64,000 nt of DNA from Trueperaceae bacterium (GCA_035703635.1 DASSXV010000069.1:1-64000), one strand, 5' to 3'; numbered from the stretch's first letter, positions 6,116-42,234 are shown. Numbers and translations are program-made. Notes: a model not told the origin generated them from the letters alone.

Positions 6116-7288
6116 GTGCAAGACGTAGTCATCACTACCGCAATCCGCACTCCGGTAGGGCGCGCCCACAAGGGCATGCTCAAGGACACGCGCCCAGACG
6201 ACTTGGCCGCACTCGTCATCCGCGCCGCGCTCGAGCGCACTCCCGGGCTGGCTGATGGGCGCATCGATGACGTTCTCATCGGCAACGCTCACCCGGAAGG
6301 GGAGGCGGGCTACAACCTCGCGCGCATCGCCGTCCAGATCGCCGGGTTGCCTGACGCCGTGGCTGGCGTCACGGTCAACCGCTTCTGCGCCTCCGGCCTG
6401 CAGACGATCGTGCAGGGCGTGCACTCCGTTGCCTACGGCATGAACGAAGTCGTGCTCGCCGGCGGTAGCGACTGCACGAGCCGCGTGCCGATGGGCGGTC
6501 ACCACCTATCGCTCAACCGCGAACTCGTGAGGAAGAAGCCGGGCGCTTACCACACCATGGGCCAGACGGCGGAGGAGGTCGCGCGGCGCTACGGGATCAC
6601 CCGCGAGCAACAGGACCGGTTCGCGCTCGCGAGCCACGAGAAGGCCCTGGCGGCGCGGGCGGCTGGGCGCTTCGCGGAGCAGGTCGTGCCCGTCGCAACG
6701 CGCGTCGTTGACGAGGCAGGCGCCTGGCACGACGTCGTGCTCGAGGTCGACGAAGGCCCGCGCGCTGGCTCCAGCCTGGAGAAGCTCGCGACCTTACCGA
6801 CCGTCTTCGCTCAGGACGAAGCCGCGACCGTAACGGCAGGCAACTCAAGCCCTCTGAACGACGGCGCTGCCATGAGCGTCATCATGCGCGCAGAGGAAGC
6901 CAGCGCCCTTGGCCTGAAGCCACTCGCGAAGTTGGTGCAAGCCGCCGTAGTTGGGGTCGAGCCTGAAGTGATGGGCATCGGTCCGGTGCCCGCCATCCGC
7001 AAGCTCCTCGACAAGGTCGGCATGACGCTTGACGACATCGACCTCATCGAGATCAACGAGGCGTTCGCCAGCCAGGCGTACTTCTGCCAGCACGAGTTGG
7101 GCATTCCGGACGAGAAACTCAACGTCAACGGCGGGGCGATCGCCATCGGCCACCCGCTCGGGGCGACTGGGGCGCGCATAGCTGCTGACCTGTTCGCCGA
7201 GATGCACCGCCGCGGCGTCAAGCACGGCATCGTGTCGATGTGCGTTGGTGGCGGGCAGGGGATGGCGGCGCTCTTCAGCCTCGTGTGA
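6116..7288 (+). CDS. acetyl-CoA C-acyltransferase (thiolase)
   Basis: NRFCASG (catalytic Cys), NEAF, GHPLGATG, CVGGGQG; GTG start after AGGGGG. Confidence 0.93.
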   Translation: MQDVVITTAIRTPVGRAHKGMLKDTRPDDLAALVIRAALERTPGLADGRIDDVLIGNAHPEGEAGYNLARIAVQIAGLPDAVAGVTVNRFCASGLQTIVQGVHSVAYGMNEVVLAGGSDCTSRVPMGGHHLSLNRELVRKKPGAYHTMGQTAEEVARRYGITREQQDRFALASHEKALAARAAGRFAEQVVPVATRVVDEAGAWHDVVLEVDEGPRAGSSLEKLATLPTVFAQDEAATVTAGNSSPLNDGAAMSVIMRAEEASALGLKPLAKLVQAAVVGVEPEVMGIGPVPAIRKLLDKVGMTLDDIDLIEINEAFASQAYFCQHELGIPDEKLNVNGGAIAIGHPLGATGARIAADLFAEMHRRGVKHGIVSMCVGGGQGMAALFSLV

Positions 7289-7517
7289 GGGGGTCGTCGC
7301 TCCCGCTAGCGGCCGCGGCGGCTTCCAGCGCCCCGACGACCTGTTCGAGCGGTATGCGGTAAGCGAAGCGCGTGCGCAAGTACCAGAGTTCCAAGATGGC
7401 GGCCAGCTCCGGCGCTGGTGGCGGCGCCGCGCGCCACCCCGGCCTTAGCCGGTCGAGGTAGGTAGCCGCTCGCGTCACGGCCAAGTCGAAGAGTTCGGCC
7501 CGTTGCACCAGGGGCAC
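7275..7517 (-). CDS. small hypothetical protein (80 aa)
   Basis: Fills the gap 20 nt downstream of tyrA on the same strand; protein-like segment LELWYLRTRFAYRIPLEQV. Confidence 0.6.
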   Translation of the reverse strand: MPLVQRAELFDLAVTRAATYLDRLRPGWRAAPPPAPELAAILELWYLRTRFAYRIPLEQVVGALEAAAAASGSDDPLTRG

Positions 7518-7536
7518 GATAACCGGACTGCGGTGG

Positions 7537-8637
7537 CTAGCCGCCGTTGTTGCGGCTGCGCACCTCGTAGCCAGCCTCGCGCAGTGAGGCGGTGCCGCGC
7601 GCTAGCTCCTCGGAGGTCTCGAACGCCAAGCGGATCGCGCCGCCAGCCTCGCGGATGCTGAGGACTTCGATGTCCTTGACGTTGACGTTGGCGTCGCCCA
7701 GCGCGTTCGTTATGCGCGCCAGCTCACCGGGCCTGTCAGGCACGGCGAGCACGACCTCGTGCCGCGCAGGGAGGAGACTGCGCCGCACGATCGGGATGCT
7801 GTCACGCGTGCGCTTGGCCGCCTCGCCCGCGCTGATCAGGGCTTCCGGGTCCTCCAGCAGCCCCTCGAGGCGTTCTAGTTGCCGCCGGTAAGCGCTAAGC
7901 GCGCTGCGCACCGCCTCGCGGTTGCCCGCCAGCATGTCGCGGCTCATCAGCGGGTCGCCGCTGGCGACGCGGGTGAGGTCGCGGAAGCCGCCTGCCGCCA
8001 GCAGCATCATGAGCGAGCGCTCCTCCCCCTCGTCGACCAACGCGGTCAGCGCCACCGCTGCGAGGTACGGCAGGTGGCTGACGGTCGCAACGAGGCGGTC
8101 GTGCTGGGTGGGGCTGACCTCGATCGGCCGCGCCCCTAGCGCCTCGACGAAGGCGCGAACGTGGGCGAGGGCCGCCTTGTCCGTCACGCCCTCCTCGGGA
8201 GTGAGCACCCAGACGGCGTTCTCGAGCAGGGCGGGGTCCGCGTTCAGCACCCCGCCCTTCTCGCTGCCCGCCATGGGGTGGCCGCCAACGAAGCGCGCCC
8301 CCTGCATGCCAGCCACTACTCCACCCTTGGTGCTGCCGACGTCGGTGACGATGGCGTCGGGACGCAAGTGCGGCAGCAACGCCTGACCTAGTGGCACAAG
8401 CGCCCTAGCTGGCGTGGCCAGGATCACCAGGTCGGCTTCCTGCAGCCACGGTCCGGCCTCGAGCTGCGCCTCGTCGATGGCGCCGAGGCCCCGCGCCGCA
8501 TCGAGCACGGTAGCGTCGCGGTCGAGGCCGATGACCTTCTCAGCCAAGAAGCGTTGCCGCGCGCCGAGCGCCACGGAGCCGCCGATCAAACCGACGCCGG
8601 CGACTACGACGGTGCCGAACAGGGGGCTGAGGCGCAC
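7537..8637 (-). CDS. tyrA: prephenate dehydrogenase with C-terminal ACT domain
   Basis: GVGLIGGS, DVGSTK, GGHPMAGSE, HD..VA.VSHLP, GGFRDLTRVA; ACT domain VPDRPGELA. Confidence 0.95.
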   Translation of the reverse strand: MRLSPLFGTVVVAGVGLIGGSVALGARQRFLAEKVIGLDRDATVLDAARGLGAIDEAQLEAGPWLQEADLVILATPARALVPLGQALLPHLRPDAIVTDVGSTKGGVVAGMQGARFVGGHPMAGSEKGGVLNADPALLENAVWVLTPEEGVTDKAALAHVRAFVEALGARPIEVSPTQHDRLVATVSHLPYLAAVALTALVDEGEERSLMMLLAAGGFRDLTRVASGDPLMSRDMLAGNREAVRSALSAYRRQLERLEGLLEDPEALISAGEAAKRTRDSIPIVRRSLLPARHEVVLAVPDRPGELARITNALGDANVNVKDIEVLSIREAGGAIRLAFETSEELARGTASLREAGYEVRSRNNGG

Positions 8638-8640
8638 GGG

Positions 8641-9672
8641 CTAGAGGCTCTTGCCCAACGCAGCGACCACCCCGCGCAGGCGGCCCATGAGCACGCCGAA
8701 CTCGGCGTCGTTGAGCTGCTGCGCGGCGTCCGACTTCGCTTCCTCCGGCTTGGCGTGCACCTCGATGATGAGGCCGTCGGCGCCAGCTGCCGCGCTGGCC
8801 AGGGCGAGGGAAGGCACGAGCGCTCGGCGGCCGGCGGCGTGGCTCGGGTCGACCCATACGGGCAGGTGCGTGAGCTCCTTGAGGACGGGAACGGCGCTGA
8901 CGTCGAGCGTGAAGCGCGTGCTCGTCTCGAACGTCCTGATGCCGCGCTCGCAGAGGATGACGTTCGGGTTGCCTTGGCTGAGGACGTACTCCGCCGCCTG
9001 CAAGAACTCGGAGATCGACGTGCTCATGCCGCGCTTGAAGAGCACCGGCTTGCCCGACTTGCCGACCTCAGCCAGGAGCGCGAAGTTCTGGGTGTTGCGG
9101 GCGCCGATCTGCAGCATGTCTGCGGTAGCGGCGACGGTCTCGACGAGTTCAGGCGCGGTCACTTCGGTGACGATGGGAAGACCGGTCGCCTCACGCGCCT
9201 CCTCCAGGAGCCGCAGTCCCTGCTGGCCGAGGCCTTGGAAGGCGTACGGGCTCGTGCGCGGCTTGTACGCCCCACCGCGCAAGATGGCCGCACCGTGCTT
9301 CTTGACGATGGCAGCTGCGTCTAGGAGCTGCGCTTCGCTTTCTACACCGCAAGGACCTGCCGCGACGACGAACGTGCCGTTGCCCGTAACTACGGCCCCT
9401 GGCCCGGCCTTGCCGATGGTCACGGCGGAGTCGTCGTGGCGGAACTCGCGCGACGCCAGCTTGTACGGCTGCGTGATGCGCATGACGGTGTCGACACCAG
9501 GCAGGGCGCCAAGGTGCTCGCGCACCTCCTCCGTTGGGGCCGGCCCGATGGCGCCGATGAGCGTGCGGGACTCACCCTCGCTGATGTGCGGCGTGAACCC
9601 GAGCGACTTGATCTCGCTGAGGACGCGGTCTAGGTTCTCTTTAGGTGCGTTCTTGGTCATGACGATGACCAT
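8641..9672 (-). CDS. aroF: DAHP synthase type I-beta with N-terminal regulatory domain
   Basis: AGPC, RGGAYKPRTSPY, QIGARN, KRG, CERGIRTFE, DPSHA; ATG 9672 preceded by AGGAG. Confidence 0.95.
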   Translation of the reverse strand: MVIVMTKNAPKENLDRVLSEIKSLGFTPHISEGESRTLIGAIGPAPTEEVREHLGALPGVDTVMRITQPYKLASREFRHDDSAVTIGKAGPGAVVTGNGTFVVAAGPCGVESEAQLLDAAAIVKKHGAAILRGGAYKPRTSPYAFQGLGQQGLRLLEEAREATGLPIVTEVTAPELVETVAATADMLQIGARNTQNFALLAEVGKSGKPVLFKRGMSTSISEFLQAAEYVLSQGNPNVILCERGIRTFETSTRFTLDVSAVPVLKELTHLPVWVDPSHAAGRRALVPSLALASAAAGADGLIIEVHAKPEEAKSDAAQQLNDAEFGVLMGRLRGVVAALGKSL

Positions 9673-9832
9673 GTGGTTACTCCTGGCTGCGCTGCCGTGG
9701 CGCTTGACGCGGTGTTGTTCAGGTGTGGCCAGCTGCCGCACCTCTGCCGCGGGGCGGCACGGGTGACGGCAGGGGGCTGCCGATACTAACGCTCGTTTTG
9801 GATAGGGACCGCCTGCGGGGCCTGACTCGTGG

Positions 9833-9934
9833 TCAGGCGCAGGCTGTTGCTACGGGGGTGAGGTAGAGCGGATACGCGTAGCCATAGTCATAGCCATCGT
9901 CCACGGCACCACCTCCCGGTAGCAAGTTAGTCAT
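9833..9934 (-). CDS. putative Tyr-rich leader peptide of the aroF-tyrA operon (33 aa from ATG 9934, or 23 aa from GTG 9904)
   Basis: MTNLLPGGGAVDDGYDYGYAYPLYLTPVATACA; 5 Tyr in 10 codons; GGAGGT precedes the GTG; lies between the promoter and aroF. Confidence 0.75.
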   Translation of the reverse strand: MTNLLPGGGAVDDGYDYGYAYPLYLTPVATACA

Positions 9935-9941
9935 GGCGGAG

Positions 9942-9969
9942 AGTGTAACAGGTGCGCGGCGCTTGTCAA
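9942..9969 (-). promoter_or_regulatory. sigma70-type promoter of the leader-aroF-tyrA transcript
   Basis: TTGACA (9969-9964), 16 nt ending in TGT, TACACT (9947-9942); 7 nt before ATG 9934. Confidence 0.8.
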
Positions 9970-10031
9970 CGCGGTTGGGCCGCGACCTCCGGAAGTATCC
10001 GCGAGCGGGTGAAGGGAGTAACCTCTTACCC

Positions 10032-10568
10032 ATGACGCAGCACACCGAACCGCGTGAAGTCGACTACGTCGCTCCCCTTGGGGCGGGAGCTGACAAGACT
10101 GAGCGTTATCTCGAGCTGCGCCGCTACGTCCTCGCGTTGACGGACGGTGAACCGGACTGGCTAGCCAACCTGGCGAACGTAGCGAGCGCCGTGTACGACC
10201 ACGTGCCTGGCCTCAACTGGGCGGGTTTCTACCTCATGAAGGGCGGCGAGCTCGTGCTTGGGCCGTTCCAGGGGCGCCCGGCGTGCGTGCGCATCGCCAG
10301 TGGCCGCGGGGTATGCGGCGCGGCGGTCGCCGAGCGCAGAACGCAGGTTGTGCCTGACGTGCAGGCGTTCCCTGGGCACATCGCGTGCGACGCGCGCTCG
10401 CGCTCCGAGATCGTCGTTCCAGTGATGGTCGCTGGTGAGGTCGTAGCGGTGCTCGACCTCGACAGCGCTCAACTCGCGAACTTCGACATCGAGGACCGCC
10501 GCGCCCTCGAGACCATCGTCAACGACATCGTTGGGCGTGTCGACTGGGTGGCCGCGACGCGCAACTGA
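10032..10568 (+). CDS. msrC: GAF-domain free methionine-(R)-sulfoxide reductase
   Basis: NWAGFY, LGPFQGRPAC, GRGVCG, HIACD, SEIVVP; TAACCT 7 nt before ATG 10032. Confidence 0.88.
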   Translation: MTQHTEPREVDYVAPLGAGADKTERYLELRRYVLALTDGEPDWLANLANVASAVYDHVPGLNWAGFYLMKGGELVLGPFQGRPACVRIASGRGVCGAAVAERRTQVVPDVQAFPGHIACDARSRSEIVVPVMVAGEVVAVLDLDSAQLANFDIEDRRALETIVNDIVGRVDWVAATRN

Positions 10569-10575
10569 ACGCCGG

Positions 10576-11331
10576 CTAGGCCAGCTCTGACTCCGCCCTC
10601 GCATCGACGGCGGCGACGGCGTCAAGCAGGAGCCTGAAAGGTGCCGCATGCTCAGGGTGGTCGCGGTACGCCATCTCCGGGTGCCACTGCACGCCAAGCA
10701 CCCAAGAACCGCTGCGCTCCTCGACCGCCTCGACGAGCCCGTCACCAGCGTGCGCCACGGCGATCAGCCCGGCGCCGACGACGTCGATGGCCTGGTGGTG
10801 GTAGCTGTTCGCCCGCACCTTGGTGGCCCCGAACGCGCTGGCTAGGCGACTGCCTGGCGCCAACGAGATGGCGTGGAGCGGCGTGCCGCGCAGGTCGTGC
10901 TGGTCGTGCTGCCACGCCTCCGGCAGGGCGGGGATGTGCTGGTGCAGGGTGCCGCCCTCGGCCACGTTGATGACTTGGTGGCCGCGGCAGATGCCAAGGA
11001 CTGGCTTACCGCGCGCGCGGAAGGCGCGGTAGAGCGCGATCTCGAAGGCGTCCCTGCGCTCGTCGACGCTGCCCAGGTCGGGGTGGGGAGCGGCGCCGAA
11101 GAGCTCCGGGTCAACGTCGGCTCCGCCCGTGAGGAGGAGCGCGTCGCTGCTCGCCGCGTACGCCTCCGCCAGCTGCGGGTCGAGGACGGCCACCATGGTC
11201 GGTAGGCCACCCGCGGCGGCGAGCGCCTGCGAGTAGTTGCGGCCCGTCAGCGCGTCCTCGCGCATGAGGCCGGTGGTGCGGTTGCTGATGCCGGTACTTA
11301 CGAGCACGCGTGGCCGAGTCGTGGTGTTCAC
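10576..11331 (-). CDS. peptidase C26 / gamma-glutamyl-GABA hydrolase family glutamine amidotransferase
   Basis: LLLTGGADVDP, LGICRGHQ, NSYHHQA, GVQWHPE; TACCCT 6 nt before GTG 11331. Confidence 0.9.
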   Translation of the reverse strand: MNTTTRPRVLVSTGISNRTTGLMREDALTGRNYSQALAAAGGLPTMVAVLDPQLAEAYAASSDALLLTGGADVDPELFGAAPHPDLGSVDERRDAFEIALYRAFRARGKPVLGICRGHQVINVAEGGTLHQHIPALPEAWQHDQHDLRGTPLHAISLAPGSRLASAFGATKVRANSYHHQAIDVVGAGLIAVAHAGDGLVEAVEERSGSWVLGVQWHPEMAYRDHPEHAAPFRLLLDAVAAVDARAESELA

Positions 11332-11475
11332 GCCACTAGGGTACCCCCAGCCGCTAACGGGCGCTAGCGCTCGTGCGGCGCCCTTGGGGTGAGGCCCGCT
11401 GCGTGCGCCTCTGGTACGCTTCCGGCGGTGTGGACGACGCAAGCGGTTGCCTCGCGCCACTGCCTGGGAGGGTGA

Positions 11476-12687
11476 ATGCCTGGAATCGCGATGATCGGCG
11501 CCCAGTGGGGCGACGAGGGTAAGGGTAAGGTCGTCGACGCGCTCGCCGCCGAGGCTGACTTGGTGGTGCGCTACTCGGGTGGCGCCAACGCCGGCCACAC
11601 GGTCGTCGTTGGTGGCGACGTCTTCAAGCTCCACCACCTGCCTTGTGGGACGCTGCACGAGCGGCCTACCTCCGTGTTGGGCGGCGGCATGGTCATCGAC
11701 CCGTGGACGTTCCTAGAGGAACTCGACGGTTTGAGCGCTCGCCGCGACCCTGGCCGCGTGCTCGTGTCGACGGAAGCGCACCTCGTGCTGCCGCACCACA
11801 TGAAGAACGACGAGGGCGGTGGCTTCGTCGGCACGACGGGCCGCGGCATCGGCCCGGCTTACTCCGACAAGGCTCGACGCATCGGCGTGCGCGCAGGCGA
11901 CCTGCTCGACGACGACGTGCTGCGCGAGCGCCTCGCGCGCCTCATCGAAGCGAAGCCGAACTCGACGGCGCGGGTCGGCTGGACGAGCGTGAACGTCGCC
12001 ATGGCCGAGTTGGCTGGCGTGCGCGAGCGCCTCGCGCCGCTGGTGGCCGATACGGGCGCCATGGTGCGCGAGGGGTTGGCGCGCGGCGAACGCGTGCTCT
12101 TCGAGGGTGGGCAGGGCACCATGCTCGACCTGTCCTACGGTACCTACCCATACGTCACCTCCAGCCACCCCACCGTCGGCGGCATCTTGATCGGCGCTGG
12201 GGTCAGCCACAAGGCGTTGGACGGTGTGTACGGGGTCGTCAAGGCGTTCACGAGCCGCGTCGGTCACGGACCGTTCCCGACCGAGATCACGGATGAGCCG
12301 ATGGGCACGCGCCTGCGGGGCACCGGCTCTAACCAGTGGGACGAGTACGGCACCACCACCGGTAGGCCGCGCCGCGTTGGTTGGCTCGACTTGCCGCAGC
12401 TTAAGTACGCCTGCGACATCAACGGCTTTGACGCCCTCGTGGTCACGAAGCTAGACGTCCTCTCCGGCCTTGAGCGGGTGCGCGTGGCTGTGGACCACGG
12501 CGACGACGGTGCGGTGTACGAGGAGCTTCCCGGTTGGGGTGAACTGCGCGGGTTGGGCAGCCGCGAGGCGTTACCACGCGAGGTGCACGACTACTTGGGC
12601 CTCATAGAGGAGCATACCGGCGTGCCCGTCGCCATCTTCTCGACGAGCCCAGATCGAGAAGACACCTACGGCTCGGTCACTTGGTGA
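11476..12687 (+). CDS. purA: adenylosuccinate synthetase
   Basis: GAQWGDEGKGK, GGANAGHT, GTTGRGIGPAY, GTYPYVTSS, GTTTGRPRR, TKLDVL. Confidence 0.97.
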   Translation: MPGIAMIGAQWGDEGKGKVVDALAAEADLVVRYSGGANAGHTVVVGGDVFKLHHLPCGTLHERPTSVLGGGMVIDPWTFLEELDGLSARRDPGRVLVSTEAHLVLPHHMKNDEGGGFVGTTGRGIGPAYSDKARRIGVRAGDLLDDDVLRERLARLIEAKPNSTARVGWTSVNVAMAELAGVRERLAPLVADTGAMVREGLARGERVLFEGGQGTMLDLSYGTYPYVTSSHPTVGGILIGAGVSHKALDGVYGVVKAFTSRVGHGPFPTEITDEPMGTRLRGTGSNQWDEYGTTTGRPRRVGWLDLPQLKYACDINGFDALVVTKLDVLSGLERVRVAVDHGDDGAVYEELPGWGELRGLGSREALPREVHDYLGLIEEHTGVPVAIFSTSPDREDTYGSVTW

Positions 12688-38933: not shown

Positions 38934-39482
38934 CTAGAGCCGCGGTAGCGTCACTCCGGTTTGGCCCTGGTACTTGCCGTCGCGGTCGGCATAGGTAGTG
39001 TCCGGCCGCTCGCCCTGGAAGAAGAGCAGCTGCACTATGCCCTCGTTGGCGTACACCTTGGCGGGCAACGGGGTGGTGTTGGAGAGTTCGAGGGTGACGT
39101 GGCCCTCCCACCCCGGCTCGAGTGGGGTGACGTTGGCGACGATGCCGCACCGCGCGTAAGACGACTTGCCTAGGGCGATGACCATGGTGTCGTCTGGGAT
39201 CTTCAGGTACTCGACAGAGCGCGTGAGCACGAACGAGTTCGGCGGGATGATGCAGGTCTCGCCGTCCCACTCGACGAGGCTGCGGGTGTCGAAGTTCTTG
39301 GGGTCCACTACGGTGTTGAAGGCGTTCACGAAGATGCGCCATTCAGGTGCGGCGCGCAGGTCGTAACCGAAGCTCGAGAGCCCGTAACTGATGACGCCTT
39401 GGCGCACGAGGCGCTCCTCGAAGGGCGTGATCATGCCCTCCTTGGCGCGGGCGCGGATCCAACTGTCAGGCCTGATGCTCAT
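38934..39482 (-). CDS. dcd: dCTP deaminase
   Basis: [37 protein letters not shown]. Confidence 0.96.
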
Positions 39483-39551
39483 CGGGGCACTTTACCAGCG
39501 TGGCGGAGTCGGTCGCGGCTGCGGCGCGGGCGCCCACGGACCACTGCGCGA

Positions 39552-39583
39552 GTGATAGCGAAGTGATATCATCGTGCTAGCAC
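39552..39583. promoter_or_regulatory. three helically phased boxes, candidate RHH repressor operator
   Basis: GTGATAGC (39552), GTGATATC (39563), GTGCTAGC (39574) at exactly 11-bp spacing; includes palindromes TGATATCA and GTGCTAGCAC. Confidence 0.65.
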
Positions 39584-39595
39584 ATTGGAGGTGCC

Positions 39596-40486
39596 GTGAA
39601 CGAAGTCGTTGAGCGAGTAGTGGAGAAGCAAGCCCGCGCGGGGAACGGGTTTCTAGGGCTGGGCATCATCTTGCTGCTGTTCGCAGTGGGCGCCGTGCTA
39701 GTCATCTACGCGGGCGTCAACGAGTTGGTTATCCCGCTGATCATTGGCGTGCTCTCCATGCTGATCGGCGGCCTGCTCATCGGCGGGCTAGTGGCGGTGC
39801 AACCGAACCAGGCGCGCGTCCTCACCCTGTTCGGCACTTACGTCGGCTCGTTGCGGTCTGCCGGGTTCTGGTGGGTCAACCCCTTCACCACCAAGAAGGC
39901 CGTCAGCTTGCGCGTCCGCAACTTCACTAGCGAACGCGTGAAGGTCAACGACGCGGACGGCAACCCCGTCGAGATCGCGGCGGTGGTCGTCTGGCGCGTC
40001 GCCGAGTCGGCCAAGGCGGTCTTCGACGTCGACGACTACGAGCAGTTCGTCGGCATCCAGTCAGAGACGGCCCTGCGCGGCCTGGCCACGCGCTACCCGT
40101 ACGACGCCAGCGGAGCCGACCGCCCGTCGCTACGCGAGAACCCGGACGAGCTCGCCACCGCACTCCGCGGCGAGCTCGAGCAGCGCCTCGAAGTAGCCGG
40201 CGTAGACGTGATAGAGGCGCGCCTAACGCACTTGGCCTACGCTCCGGAGATAGCGCAAGCCATGCTGCGCAGGCAGCAGGCGCAGGCCGTCGTCTCCGCC
40301 CGCCGCCTCATCGTGGAGGCCGCGGTCGGCATGGTGGAGGACGCGCTCAATGGGCTCTCGCAGCGCGGCGTCGTCGAACTGGACGACGACAAGCGCGCTG
40401 CCATGGCCAACAACCTCATGGTCGCCCTCACGAGTGAGCAAGGGGTCACGCCGATCGTCAACGCAGGCACGCTGTACGGGGGCTGA
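39596..40486 (+). CDS. SPFH / band 7 domain membrane protein
   Basis: Two [50 protein letters not shown]. Confidence 0.93.
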
Positions 40487-40497
40487 AAGGAACGCAC

Positions 40498-42234
40498 ATG
40501 ACCAAGCACTTTAGAACCGCCGCCGGCGTGACCCTGGCACTGCTACTCGGCGCCGGCACTGGCCTAGCCCAGGGGGCCGCGCAAGGAGACGTGCAAGGAG
40601 GCGCGCTCACCTTCGACATGATCATCGGCGGCGCCACCATCGGCCAGGCCGGCATGACTCTCACCCGCACCCCGGAGGGAACGACTTCGAACGGCTTCGC
40701 GAACGTGACGGGCACGCTGGACCTCCATGACGTCCTCGAGACGGGGCCGAACGGCGCCGCGACGAGCTATCACCTGACGGGCGCCGTGCAGGGCACGAAC
40801 GTGACGATCGACGTGAAGTTCGGGGCGAGCAGCGCGGAGATGACGATAGAACAGGGCGGTAAGAGCCAATCGGTAACGTTGCCGCTGCCGGGCTCCGTCT
40901 ACGTGCTCGACAACAACTTCATCGATGGCTTCCAGATTCTCGCAGACGAAGTGCTCAAGAGCGGTGCGGCTGGAACCTTCGACATCATCGTCCCGCAAGT
41001 GGCTATGTTCGGCAGCGCCGCGCTTGGCGCGCCCGCGGCGGCGAGCGTCACGGTCGGCGGGCAGGAGACGCCAGCGCAACGCCTCGACGGGGTGCTCAAG
41101 GCCGGCCCGCAGTCGATCGACTTCAGCCTCTACCTCGACGCCAACGGCAACATCTTGGTGCTGACCACCAGCCAGAACGTGCGCATGGAGCGCACTAGCG
41201 CTGCTCAGGCGCCGGCGCCCGCCACTACGGCCGTACCGGAAGCCTTGGCCACGGCGGCCGCGTGCCTCGTCGAGCGCGACGTGAGCATCACGAGCACCGG
41301 CGCCACCTTGGTCGGCAAGCTCACCCTCCCGAAGGCGGCGGCAGACGGCAGTGAAGGTCCCGCCCCGACCCTTGTGCTGATCGCAGGCTCAGGCGCCGTC
41401 GACCTTGACGGCAACGCTCCGCCCCTGCTCACCAACAGCGGTTACAAGCAGCTCGCGTACGCCCTAGCCTGCCACGGTTACGGGGTGCTTCGGGCCTCGA
41501 AGCTGGGCATCAGCCCATCTACCGGCGACGGCAACGCCGTTACCCTCGACACCTACGCCCAGAACACCGCGGACTGGCTTGGCTTCCTCGCTACCCAGCC
41601 AGGGGTTGACGCTGCGCGCCTCGGCATCATCGGTCACTCCGAGGGCGGGTTGGTGGCGTTGTACGCCACCGCTCACGGCAAGGTCGCGCCACAGGCGCTG
41701 GTGCTCTTGGCCTCCCCAGGTAGGCCGCTCGACGTCCTGCTCCGCGAGCAGCTGCTAGCGCGCGCGCAAGAGGGCGGGGCGACGACGGAGGCGCTCGCCA
41801 CGCTCGGGCAGCAGATAGACGAGCTCATCGCCGCCGTGAACGCCTCTACCGGCGTCGCGCTGACCCCAACCCCTGAGCTCGAGAAGTTCCCACTCACTGG
41901 CATGTTCGCCCCCGCCGCGGGGCTACTGCGGAGCGAGTTCGGGGTGGAGCCCTCTGACCTAGCGCGCGCCGTTGCCGTACCCGTAGCCGTCCTCCAGGGC
42001 GAGAAGGACATCCAGGTGACCACCGTCGACGCCGAACTCATCGCCGCCGCCGCGCCTCACGCTGACCTGTTCCTGTTCGCGGACCTTACGCACAACCTCG
42101 TCGACACGGCCGGCCCGGCGCTCGGCATGCCGCTCCCAGGCGCGGACGCGGTCATCTCACCCACGGTCGTGCAAGTGATCGCCACCTACCTCGCTGGCAA
42201 CCTGCGAGCACGCGGTGCGAACTCGCCAAGGTGA
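40498..42234 (+). CDS. secreted alpha/beta hydrolase with N-terminal beta-rich domain
   Basis: Signal peptide, GSGAVDLDGN, GHSEGG, QGEKDIQV, LTH. Confidence 0.85.
   Translation: MTKHFRTAAGVTLALLLGAGTGLAQGAAQGDVQGGALTFDMIIGGATIGQAGMTLTRTPEGTTSNGFANVTGTLDLHDVLETGPNGAATSYHLTGAVQGTNVTIDVKFGASSAEMTIEQGGKSQSVTLPLPGSVYVLDNNFIDGFQILADEVLKSGAAGTFDIIVPQVAMFGSAALGAPAAASVTVGGQETPAQRLDGVLKAGPQSIDFSLYLDANGNILVLTTSQNVRMERTSAAQAPAPATTAVPEALATAAACLVERDVSITSTGATLVGKLTLPKAAADGSEGPAPTLVLIAGSGAVDLDGNAPPLLTNSGYKQLAYALACHGYGVLRASKLGISPSTGDGNAVTLDTYAQNTADWLGFLATQPGVDAARLGIIGHSEGGLVALYATAHGKVAPQALVLLASPGRPLDVLLREQLLARAQEGGATTEALATLGQQIDELIAAVNASTGVALTPTPELEKFPLTGMFAPAAGLLRSEFGVEPSDLARAVAVPVAVLQGEKDIQVTTVDAELIAAAAPHADLFLFADLTHNLVDTAGPALGMPLPGADAVISPTVVQVIATYLAGNLRARGANSPR

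Follow-up and report, generated by a model that had tools for sequence, protein, structure and literature searches.

A candidate tyrosine-sensing leader peptide upstream of aroF-tyrA in a Trueperaceae bacterium

Introduction

To our knowledge, textbooks list repressors (TyrR) and T-boxes for the control of tyrosine (Tyr) genes, and no leader peptide. For the aroF-tyrA operon of Escherichia coli, an attenuator sensing tRNA-Tyr was reportedly hypothesised by Camakaris et al. in 1980. Here we describe a short open reading frame (ORF) found immediately upstream of aroF-tyrA in a Trueperaceae bacterium, in a stretch of 64,000 nucleotides (nt) of DNA (GCA_035703635.1, DASSXV010000069.1:1-64000) which was analysed as a whole and is referred to below as the window. 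Judging from sequence comparisons, we estimate at roughly 80% the probability that this ORF is a cis-acting Tyr-sensing leader peptide of the operon, whose two genes encode 3-deoxy-D-arabinoheptulosonate 7-phosphate (DAHP) synthase and prephenate dehydrogenase.

Papers citing the E. coli proposal speak of an "attenuator sensing tyr-tRNA" that was "hypothesized" for aroF-tyrA, and the passages concerned mention no leader peptide, although operon and signal are the same as in the case considered here (PMC8632094, PMC2659441). In Deinococcus deserti, for which transcription starts have been mapped, 14 leaderless leader peptides are reported, in which the transcription start is the A of the ATG, and these include leaders preceding the genes for DAHP synthase (with phenylalanine (Phe), Tyr and tryptophan (Trp) codons) and for tyrosyl-tRNA synthetase (PMC4007540). 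The first of these, Deide_18471 (MKLRSAFFYWFGVPRA), comes from the same phylum as the window and is likewise a short, aromatic-rich ORF at the 5' end of a transcript, behind a -10 box and before a DAHP synthase gene, for which ribosome stalling has been proposed. It differs in being 16 amino acids (aa) long and in combining Phe, Tyr and Trp, whereas the leader in the window has 33 aa, contains Tyr only, shows no sequence similarity to it, precedes an aroF-tyrA pair and adds an in-frame start led by a Shine-Dalgarno sequence and buried in a hairpin. The passages on the terminator mechanism in that paper concern the D. deserti leaders in general, and no terminator is shown there for Deide_18471 (PMC4007540).

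In Corynebacterium glutamicum, the leader aroR precedes aroF, carries Phe-Tyr-Phe and is described as responding when Phe is limiting, and not to how much Tyr is available; as in the window, aromatic codons precede aroF, and stalling in aroR is reported to raise transcription (PMC11802643). In contrast to the actinobacterial aroR, the leader in the window is of the Tyr-only kind, and the search for a canonical terminator gave none. The predicted upstream ORF uORFC-13-1 of Acholeplasma (Mollicutes), also located before aroF, contains Phe codons (a U-run) followed by an intrinsic terminator stem, and the speed at which aromatic residues are incorporated is thought to govern the downstream structure (PMC8632094); its sequence is unrelated to that of the leader in the window. 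The enterobacterial trpL, pheL and pheST leaders (PMC11802643) share with it an ORF rich in cognate codons and a stop codon in or next to a hairpin. The enterobacterial style of 1:2, 2:3 and 3:4 pairings with a U-tract terminator is found in relatives of the window leader, whereas the window itself has no identifiable 3:4 terminator or 2:3 antiterminator, and its leader differs further in its Tyr codons and in having a leaderless-type start plus an internal Shine-Dalgarno sequence.

A first-pass annotation of this DNA, made from the sequence alone, had stated that no characterised Tyr leader peptide was known in this lineage. In view of the DAHP synthase leader of D. deserti (PMC4007540) this was too sweeping. 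Neither a Tyr-only leader nor any leader in Trueperaceae or Thermus was found in searches of the open-licence literature.

Results

Promoter, leader frame and tyrosine codons

The elements of the leader are listed below in window coordinates. All of them lie on the minus strand, as do aroF and tyrA (the first-pass annotation was silent on strand), and the leader is placed between its promoter and the operon, in the same orientation.

9969-9942, minus strand: predicted promoter, with -35 box TTGACA at 9969-9964, a 16-nt spacer and -10 box TACACT at 9947-9942
9950-9949, minus strand: extended -10 TG of the same promoter (TGtTACACT at 9950-9942)
9934-9833, minus strand: leader ORF, 33 codons plus stop, MTNLLPGGGAVDDGYDYGYAYPLYLTPVATACA
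9934-9932, minus strand: leader ATG, leaderless-type and 5'-proximal, 7 nt past the -10 box
9917-9909, minus strand: internal Shine-Dalgarno sequence GGGAGGTGG, 4 nt 5' of the GTG
9904-9902, minus strand: internal in-frame start GTG, ten codons into the ORF, yielding the 23-aa form VDDGYDYGYAYPLYLTPVATACA
9892-9863, minus strand: five Tyr codons, the proposed stalling sites (TAT 9892, TAT 9886, TAC 9880, TAT 9874, TAC 9865)
9835-9833, minus strand: leader stop codon TGA, 160 nt before the aroF ATG at 9672

The predicted promoter matches the consensus hexamers at 10 of 12 positions and has the TG in addition. It is the sole promoter-like site in 9400-10300 (one found, compared with 0.1 in shuffled sequences), no second one was found in window positions 1-40000, and both its boxes are kept in orthologs, as seen in alignments and in the sequences themselves. 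The promoter with its extended -10 and the ORF beginning 7 nt after it had been described in the first-pass annotation, and all of these are present at 9969-9934.

Five of ten consecutive codons in the leader encode Tyr, a residue which makes up 2.4% of those encoded by 1,843 long ORFs of the genome (Phe, 3.4%). Three of the five are TAT, which accounts for 5.6% of Tyr codons in the same 1,843 ORFs, a share that is pushed downward by their having been picked for a G+C fraction at third codon positions of at least 0.75. The earlier description of the Tyr run, and of TAC as the dominant Tyr codon, is thereby confirmed. The genome carries a single tRNA-Tyr, with anticodon GTA. A search of the complete 2.9-Mb genome, in every reading frame of both strands, for at least 5 Tyr in 11 residues returned four stop-to-stop frames; three of them are 376-706 aa long, leaving the leader as the only short one.

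Occurrence in related genomes

For comparison, relatives were grouped as genus g1 and families f1-f5, the eight closest species being referred to as group A. AroF orthologs are present in all 41 related genomes, and tyrA adjoins aroF in 29 of 30 loci, the thirtieth being a different paralog. Upstream DNA was available for 28 of the 30 loci, and in 27 of these, across the order, a short aromatic-rich frame occupies the same position and orientation. The first-pass annotation had suggested looking upstream of aroF-tyrA in relatives for Tyr codons kept despite divergent flanks, and this is what was found, both in these 27 loci and in 41 loci from metagenomes. The exception among the 28 is a congener (locus L016, genome G002) without intergenic space, in which the aroF ATG directly follows the stop codon of an amidotransferase-like gene and the leader has been lost.

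Within group A, the block extending from the Shine-Dalgarno sequence to the Tyr codons is nearly invariant and the spacer before aroF can not be aligned. The internal Shine-Dalgarno sequence is identical in all eight species and also occurs in other families of the order. A shared core, consisting of the Shine-Dalgarno sequence, 5 nt, G/ATG and (D/E)-D-G-Y-G-Y, is found in other f1 genera and in family f3, and the first two Tyr codons of the window leader correspond to its family-wide GYGY part. A scan of metagenome contigs with a degenerate form of this core returned 47 stretches; 41 of these proved to be short frames ahead of a start resembling that of aroF, and the remaining six are unrelated long ORFs.

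Among 48 unique family members, Tyr accounts for 128 of 1,215 residues (10.5%), Phe for 1.8% and Trp for 0.25%. The enrichment concerns Tyr and does not extend to Phe or Trp. The first core Tyr is encoded by TAT in 43 of the 48, and 77 TAT face 51 TAC overall, with a search pattern that accepted both codons. Outside (D/E)DGYGY the peptide is hypervariable in sequence and length (19-46 aa from the internal start). Family f4 has a frame rich in both Phe and Tyr, whose sequence shows no relation to that of the window leader. The best aroF match in family f2 covers residues 71-335 only, and f2 genomes therefore seem to carry another type of DAHP synthase.

The survey was extended to other phyla (loci L032-L110), taking the 300 nt upstream of each aroF-type gene. 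A sense frame with at least 5 Phe, Tyr or Trp in 8 residues was found in 26 of 73 loci, as against 4 of 73 in antisense and 3% in shuffled sequences, so that such leaders seem to be widespread before this type of DAHP synthase. Records in which they were seen include some labelled Smithella, Bryobacterales and Chloroflexota.

A hairpin over the internal start

The following hairpins are predicted between the leader start and aroF:

9925-9847, minus strand: hairpin 0, -34.6 kcal/mol
9844-9812, minus strand: hairpin H1, -18.7 kcal/mol, with the leader stop TGA in its 5' arm
9772-9733, minus strand: hairpin Hb, -30.2 kcal/mol, GC-rich and without a following U-tract

Hairpin 0 brings the 5' extension TTGCTAC together with GTAGCAA (9853-9847), and the internal Shine-Dalgarno sequence together with a C-rich anti-Shine-Dalgarno word, CCTCACCCCC (9863-9854), located past the Tyr codons; the Tyr codons themselves are found at the tip and in its surroundings. 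In the alignment of the eight group A species, 90.7% of cells are paired, compared with 86.3% after shuffling (0 of 500 shuffles reach the observed value), a comparison that favours hairpin 0 inasmuch as the structure was derived from the same alignment that scored it; with the 3' partner slid along the sequence, 33-48% are paired. Seven pairs change on both sides among these species. Other evidence was obtained from 42 family members, for which cognate 5' and 3' arms give a mean of -13.45 kcal/mol as opposed to -10.76 kcal/mol for non-cognate ones, the cognate mean being reached in none of 10,000 permutations. The 5' extension varies at the peptide level and yet is complementary to the 3' part of the ORF, congeners using other complementary words for the same pairing. 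In these models hairpin 0 covaries and buries the internal Shine-Dalgarno sequence.

A hairpin holding the stop codon, as H1 does, recurs in congeners despite different sequences. Hb is the sole terminator-like candidate in the spacer, and can not be aligned in congeners.

The two starts

The first-pass annotation had also pointed out the in-frame GTG at 9904 behind a Shine-Dalgarno sequence, giving a 23-aa form. Comparison of the family sequences indicates that this Shine-Dalgarno-led G/ATG is the universally conserved start of the leader. The closest relative (L002, 90% AroF identity) has a deletion of 2 nt, by which its 5' ATG is no longer in frame, and only the internal start yields the Tyr peptide. 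A 5' ATG was counted where it stood 5-9 nt past a TAnnnT box (7 nt in the window); by this pattern, 43 of 48 members have it exactly 30 nt ahead of the internal start, and two have it, out of frame, at 28 nt. The spacings between the two starts are 28, 30, 33, 45 and 51 nt; four of the five are in frame, with p of about 0.045 by hand calculation. The in-frame 5' ATG was set aside as proof of translation: the fixed 30 nt could instead be a structural constraint.

The leaderless-type arrangement, in which the -10 box ends 7 nt before the ATG, is conserved, and from the putative 5' end predicted in this way the Shine-Dalgarno sequence lies at 17 nt and the Tyr core at 42-48 nt. In the closest relatives (L002, L121 and L153) the frame of the out-of-frame 5' ATG (MNLAIRRWCRGRWL) stops at a TGA which, seen from the main frame, falls within the first Tyr/Asp codons, and the deletion in these three loci constitutes a natural separation of the two starts.

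Operon genes and genome background

The genes downstream of the leader are as follows:

9684-9680, minus strand: aroF Shine-Dalgarno sequence AGGAG, with a small hairpin just 5' of it
8641-9672, minus strand: aroF, DAHP synthase (NF006421, 462.8 bits with a cut-off of 335; PF00793, PF18152)
7537-8637, minus strand: tyrA, prephenate dehydrogenase with PDH_N, PDH_C and a C-terminal ACT domain

The start of tyrA and the stop of aroF overlap by 4 nt. AroF consists of a DAHP_synth_1 domain and an N-terminal ferredoxin-like regulatory domain, and its best named match comes from an uncultured Trueperaceae genome (80% identity). The identity of the two enzymes, the 160-nt distance from the end of the ORF and the presence of a regulatory domain in each enzyme had all been given in the first-pass annotation; the distance agrees with the coordinates, and the domain matches bear out the rest (the regulatory domain being ferredoxin-like in AroF and ACT in TyrA).

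A GAF-domain gene (10032-10565, plus strand) is the divergent neighbour, its ATG lying 63 nt beyond the -35 box of the leader promoter. A second DAHP synthase paralog is located elsewhere in the genome (contig C36, about 39000-41200, minus strand), with a -10-like TAGGAT 5 nt before its ATG and an N-terminal extension which, compared by eye, we take to resemble chorismate mutase; no leader frame was found upstream of it. Contig C65 (L159:121-201, plus strand) bears another candidate leader of the leaderless type, MRPRSRVRTPRAFKHRHQRWWRQLAD, in which two Trp codons stand side by side; it is located behind TTGTCA...TACACT and 106 nt 5' of a gene of the PALP family (Pfam), whose N-terminus presumably resembles that of tryptophan synthase beta. 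It too is without a U-tract terminator, and a small hairpin abuts the Shine-Dalgarno sequence of the PALP gene.

How the leader would act

On the sequence evidence the leader is real, conserved and Tyr-specific; the direction and level of its control over aroF-tyrA are what we infer. Transcription would start at or beside the 5' ATG, and a ribosome loaded there, or at the GTG once the hairpin has opened, would read the Tyr codons. When charged tRNA-Tyr is scarce, the ribosome would stall at the tip of hairpin 0 and, together with one queued behind it, would occupy the 5' arm and leave the 3' arm free, a state that would lead to higher expression of aroF-tyrA. As the first-choice read-out we consider premature, non-canonical termination of transcription in the 160-nt spacer, which could be brought about by a GC hairpin lacking a U-tract (Hb, for example), by Rho at the C-rich spacer, or by both. 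Non-canonical termination is preferred because of the terminators present in relatives and because the organism's own gene ends lack U-tracts.

The relatives in question are found in family f4, where at four loci a leaderless Phe/Tyr-rich ORF is followed by a strong hairpin and a U-run, the 3' arm of the terminator being repeated in the 3' arm of the ORF, as in the classical design. Under a stricter scan, 4 of 56 loci qualify as having a canonical terminator, namely three of these f4 loci and the congener L009, compared with 0.4% of shuffled sequences. In clades B and C, alternative 1:2 and 2:3 pairings are kept around the stop codon: the 3' part of the ORF has two alternative partners, the 5' extension and a near-copy of that extension further downstream, and these pairings enclose the stop codon.

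As regards the organism itself, the number of U-tract terminators in 40 kb of the window does not exceed chance expectation (10 vs 8.2 and 4 vs 9.7), nor are they enriched at 54 convergent gene gaps of the genome (5 of 54, compared with 3 in shuffles). Convergent gene ends carry instead long and often perfect GC hairpins, with a mean fold energy per nt of -0.391 vs -0.325. The organism probably ends transcription without classical U-tract terminators. Rho is encoded in the genome, and in group A the spacer is rich in C at each of the eight loci (C 0.41-0.53, G 0.25-0.33), a composition that is suggestive at most of a Rho site.

Transcript data are limited to contigs, which show neither starts, ends nor strand; the leader stretch is present in such contigs from four RNA-library runs. 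Contigs from two studies extend from aroF across the spacer and part-way into the leader, ending at 9892 and 9894, about 40 nt inside it, and those of run X8 give no cover at 9893-10055, which hints weakly at a transcript that comprises leader and aroF and has its start between 9892 and the promoter. In run X1 the depth is equal over the leader and the body of aroF, with the reservation that contigs do not report level.

A number of observations weigh against control of the operon in the manner proposed. No terminator-like site was found near the window leader (0 sites in the scan of 9400-10300), and an Rfam search of 7000-12000 gave no match to a leader family or T-box, its three matches (two miRNA models and ROSE_3) being unrelated and far below gathering scores. 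Folding was also modelled with a ribosome placed at each Tyr codon or at the stop codon, and with ribosomes queued on the 5' end; H1 and Hb are present whatever the state, so that no switch is predicted, and the freed 3' arm of hairpin 0 has no competing partner in the constrained folds of the window. Among random or upstream windows, 5-7% have a C>G skew as large as that of the window spacer (0.17), which is therefore unexceptional. The simplest read-outs have the wrong sign: H1 as a terminator was rejected on logic, translation being what would prevent it, which is the wrong way round for a biosynthetic operon, and the freed C-rich 3' arm as a Rho site was rejected likewise, as starvation would then invite Rho. 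The contigs mentioned above can not establish the start, end or strand of a transcript. At the level of the peptide, 27 of the 48 members have leaders with two Tyr, five Tyr being found in the window only, and the signal in each family member is therefore carried by few codons; simple codon sensing also leaves the conserved acidic D/E-D-G ahead of the Tyr codons unaccounted for.

Of these points, the missing U-tract terminator is weak evidence against attenuation, because the genome as a whole has no excess of such terminators. Where the first-pass annotation had proposed a Tyr-sensing attenuator, the sensing half is upheld by conservation and the attenuator half is not upheld in the window, in which no terminator, Rfam match or switch was found.

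Two further candidates for the read-out were discarded. Hb was rejected as a regulated terminator, since it is present in all modelled states and no leader sequence takes over when one or the other of its arms is blocked. For the stretch reaching from the Shine-Dalgarno sequence to the Tyr codons, a partner further downstream was sought in about 30 of the 48 sequences, and duplex z-scores were close to 0.

Alternative explanations

The main rival to a transcriptional read-out leaves the sensor as it is and places the read-out in translation, in a manner that may be likened to erm-type attenuation: the 5' arm of the leader would pair over a long range with the ribosome-binding region of aroF, and queued ribosomes would free that region. 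We consider this unlikely on the whole, though it deserves to be taken seriously. In the window, the minimum-energy fold over the full length has leader positions 9-35 paired to the Shine-Dalgarno sequence and ATG of aroF, and a mask covering the 5' end as far as the first Tyr codon +14 lifts the unpaired fraction of the aroF initiation region from 0.35 to 0.58, compared with 0.32 both for a ribosome at the stop codon and for a control mask of equal length; among the eight group A loci, five gain at least 0.08 under the 5'-end mask. In family f3 the spacer measures 23-33 nt, and in one f3 locus (L025) the leader frame crosses the aroF Shine-Dalgarno sequence and ends 16 nt inside aroF, the initiation region of which is predicted to be 84% paired with the 5' part of the leader. 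Such a short spacer or overlap leaves no space for a terminator, and judging from these folds the read-out in the L025 lineage looks translational. Over 56 loci, however, the mean moves from 0.436 to 0.461 only, which is indistinguishable from the control mask (p = 0.22), and a single stalled ribosome brings about no consistent change across 27 loci. Sequestration of the aroF Shine-Dalgarno sequence relieved by one stalled ribosome was accordingly rejected as a general model, and the mask of the whole 5' end is retained as a rival for the window's own clade only. Long-range pairs in RNA of 66% G+C are easily spurious, the pairing segments (ATGAC.. and ..TGGTCAT) are fixed by coding so that covariation can not show, and the f4 relatives clearly use terminators.

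The same sensor could also act on the stability of the mRNA, with a ribosome that stalls some 40 nt past the 5' end, together with a strong Shine-Dalgarno sequence close to that end, shielding the transcript from 5'-end-dependent decay when Tyr runs short, as stalled ribosomes acting as 5' stabilisers do in Gram-positive bacteria. The fixed distance of the Tyr core from the putative 5' end, the perfect Shine-Dalgarno sequence close to that end and the failure to find a structural switch in folds of the window are all in keeping with this; the support is by analogy, and since neither the alternative pairings of clades B and C nor the terminators of family f4 would be explained, we regard it as improbable. 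It is more improbable still that the peptide has a function of its own, for example as a small regulator or as the precursor of a Tyr-containing modified peptide, and is not a cis-acting sensor. The amino-acid-level retention of (D/E)DGYGY across families goes beyond what codon counting needs and would speak for such a function, but the rest of the peptide is hypervariable, it always stands immediately upstream of aroF-tyrA on the same strand, sister lineages swap to Phe, Tyr and Trp in unrelated sequences, no NCBIfam family is matched and no gene for a modifying enzyme was seen among the ORFs alongside. Open frames are plentiful in high-GC DNA, and the ORF might on that ground be a functionless product of chance in a GC-rich intergenic region; given its Tyr density, unique among the short frames of the genome, its conservation in relatives and metagenomes, its preference for the rare TAT codon and the covariation of hairpin 0, we attach next to no weight to this explanation.

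Discussion

In conclusion, in this study a short Tyr-rich ORF preceding aroF-tyrA was found to have the properties of a leader peptide, and what is distinctive about it is the combination of Tyr-only codons with a bias towards the rare one, a leaderless-type start plus a buried internal start, and the lack of a canonical terminator. A more specific proposal is that the Trueperaceae leader is a non-classical sensor with two starts, in which a stall-driven queue on the 5' arm acts without an intrinsic terminator. A leaderless ribosome, being independent of structure, would open the hairpin that hides the second, Shine-Dalgarno-led start; ribosomes would stall on rare TAT codons 5-7 codons past that start, perhaps aided by the conserved acidic (D/E)-D-G sequence in the nascent peptide; and the queue could act through long-range pairing with the ribosome-binding site of aroF, through Rho or through protection of the 5' end. 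This proposal is speculative, and we think it doubtful in this complete form.

Taken with the leaders of D. deserti, C. glutamicum and Acholeplasma and with the survey of other phyla, the results suggest that control of aroF(-tyrA) by way of ribosomal sensing is widespread and has been under-described. Among such leaders, that of Trueperaceae stands out in being Tyr-specific, in its pairing of a leaderless with a buried internal start and in belonging to a genome that probably does without U-tract terminators, and it would constitute a compact test case for the read-out of ribosome stalling in organisms without terminators of this kind. The succession of a Shine-Dalgarno sequence, a start codon and (D/E)DGYGY may in addition serve as a marker for annotating aroF-tyrA leaders.

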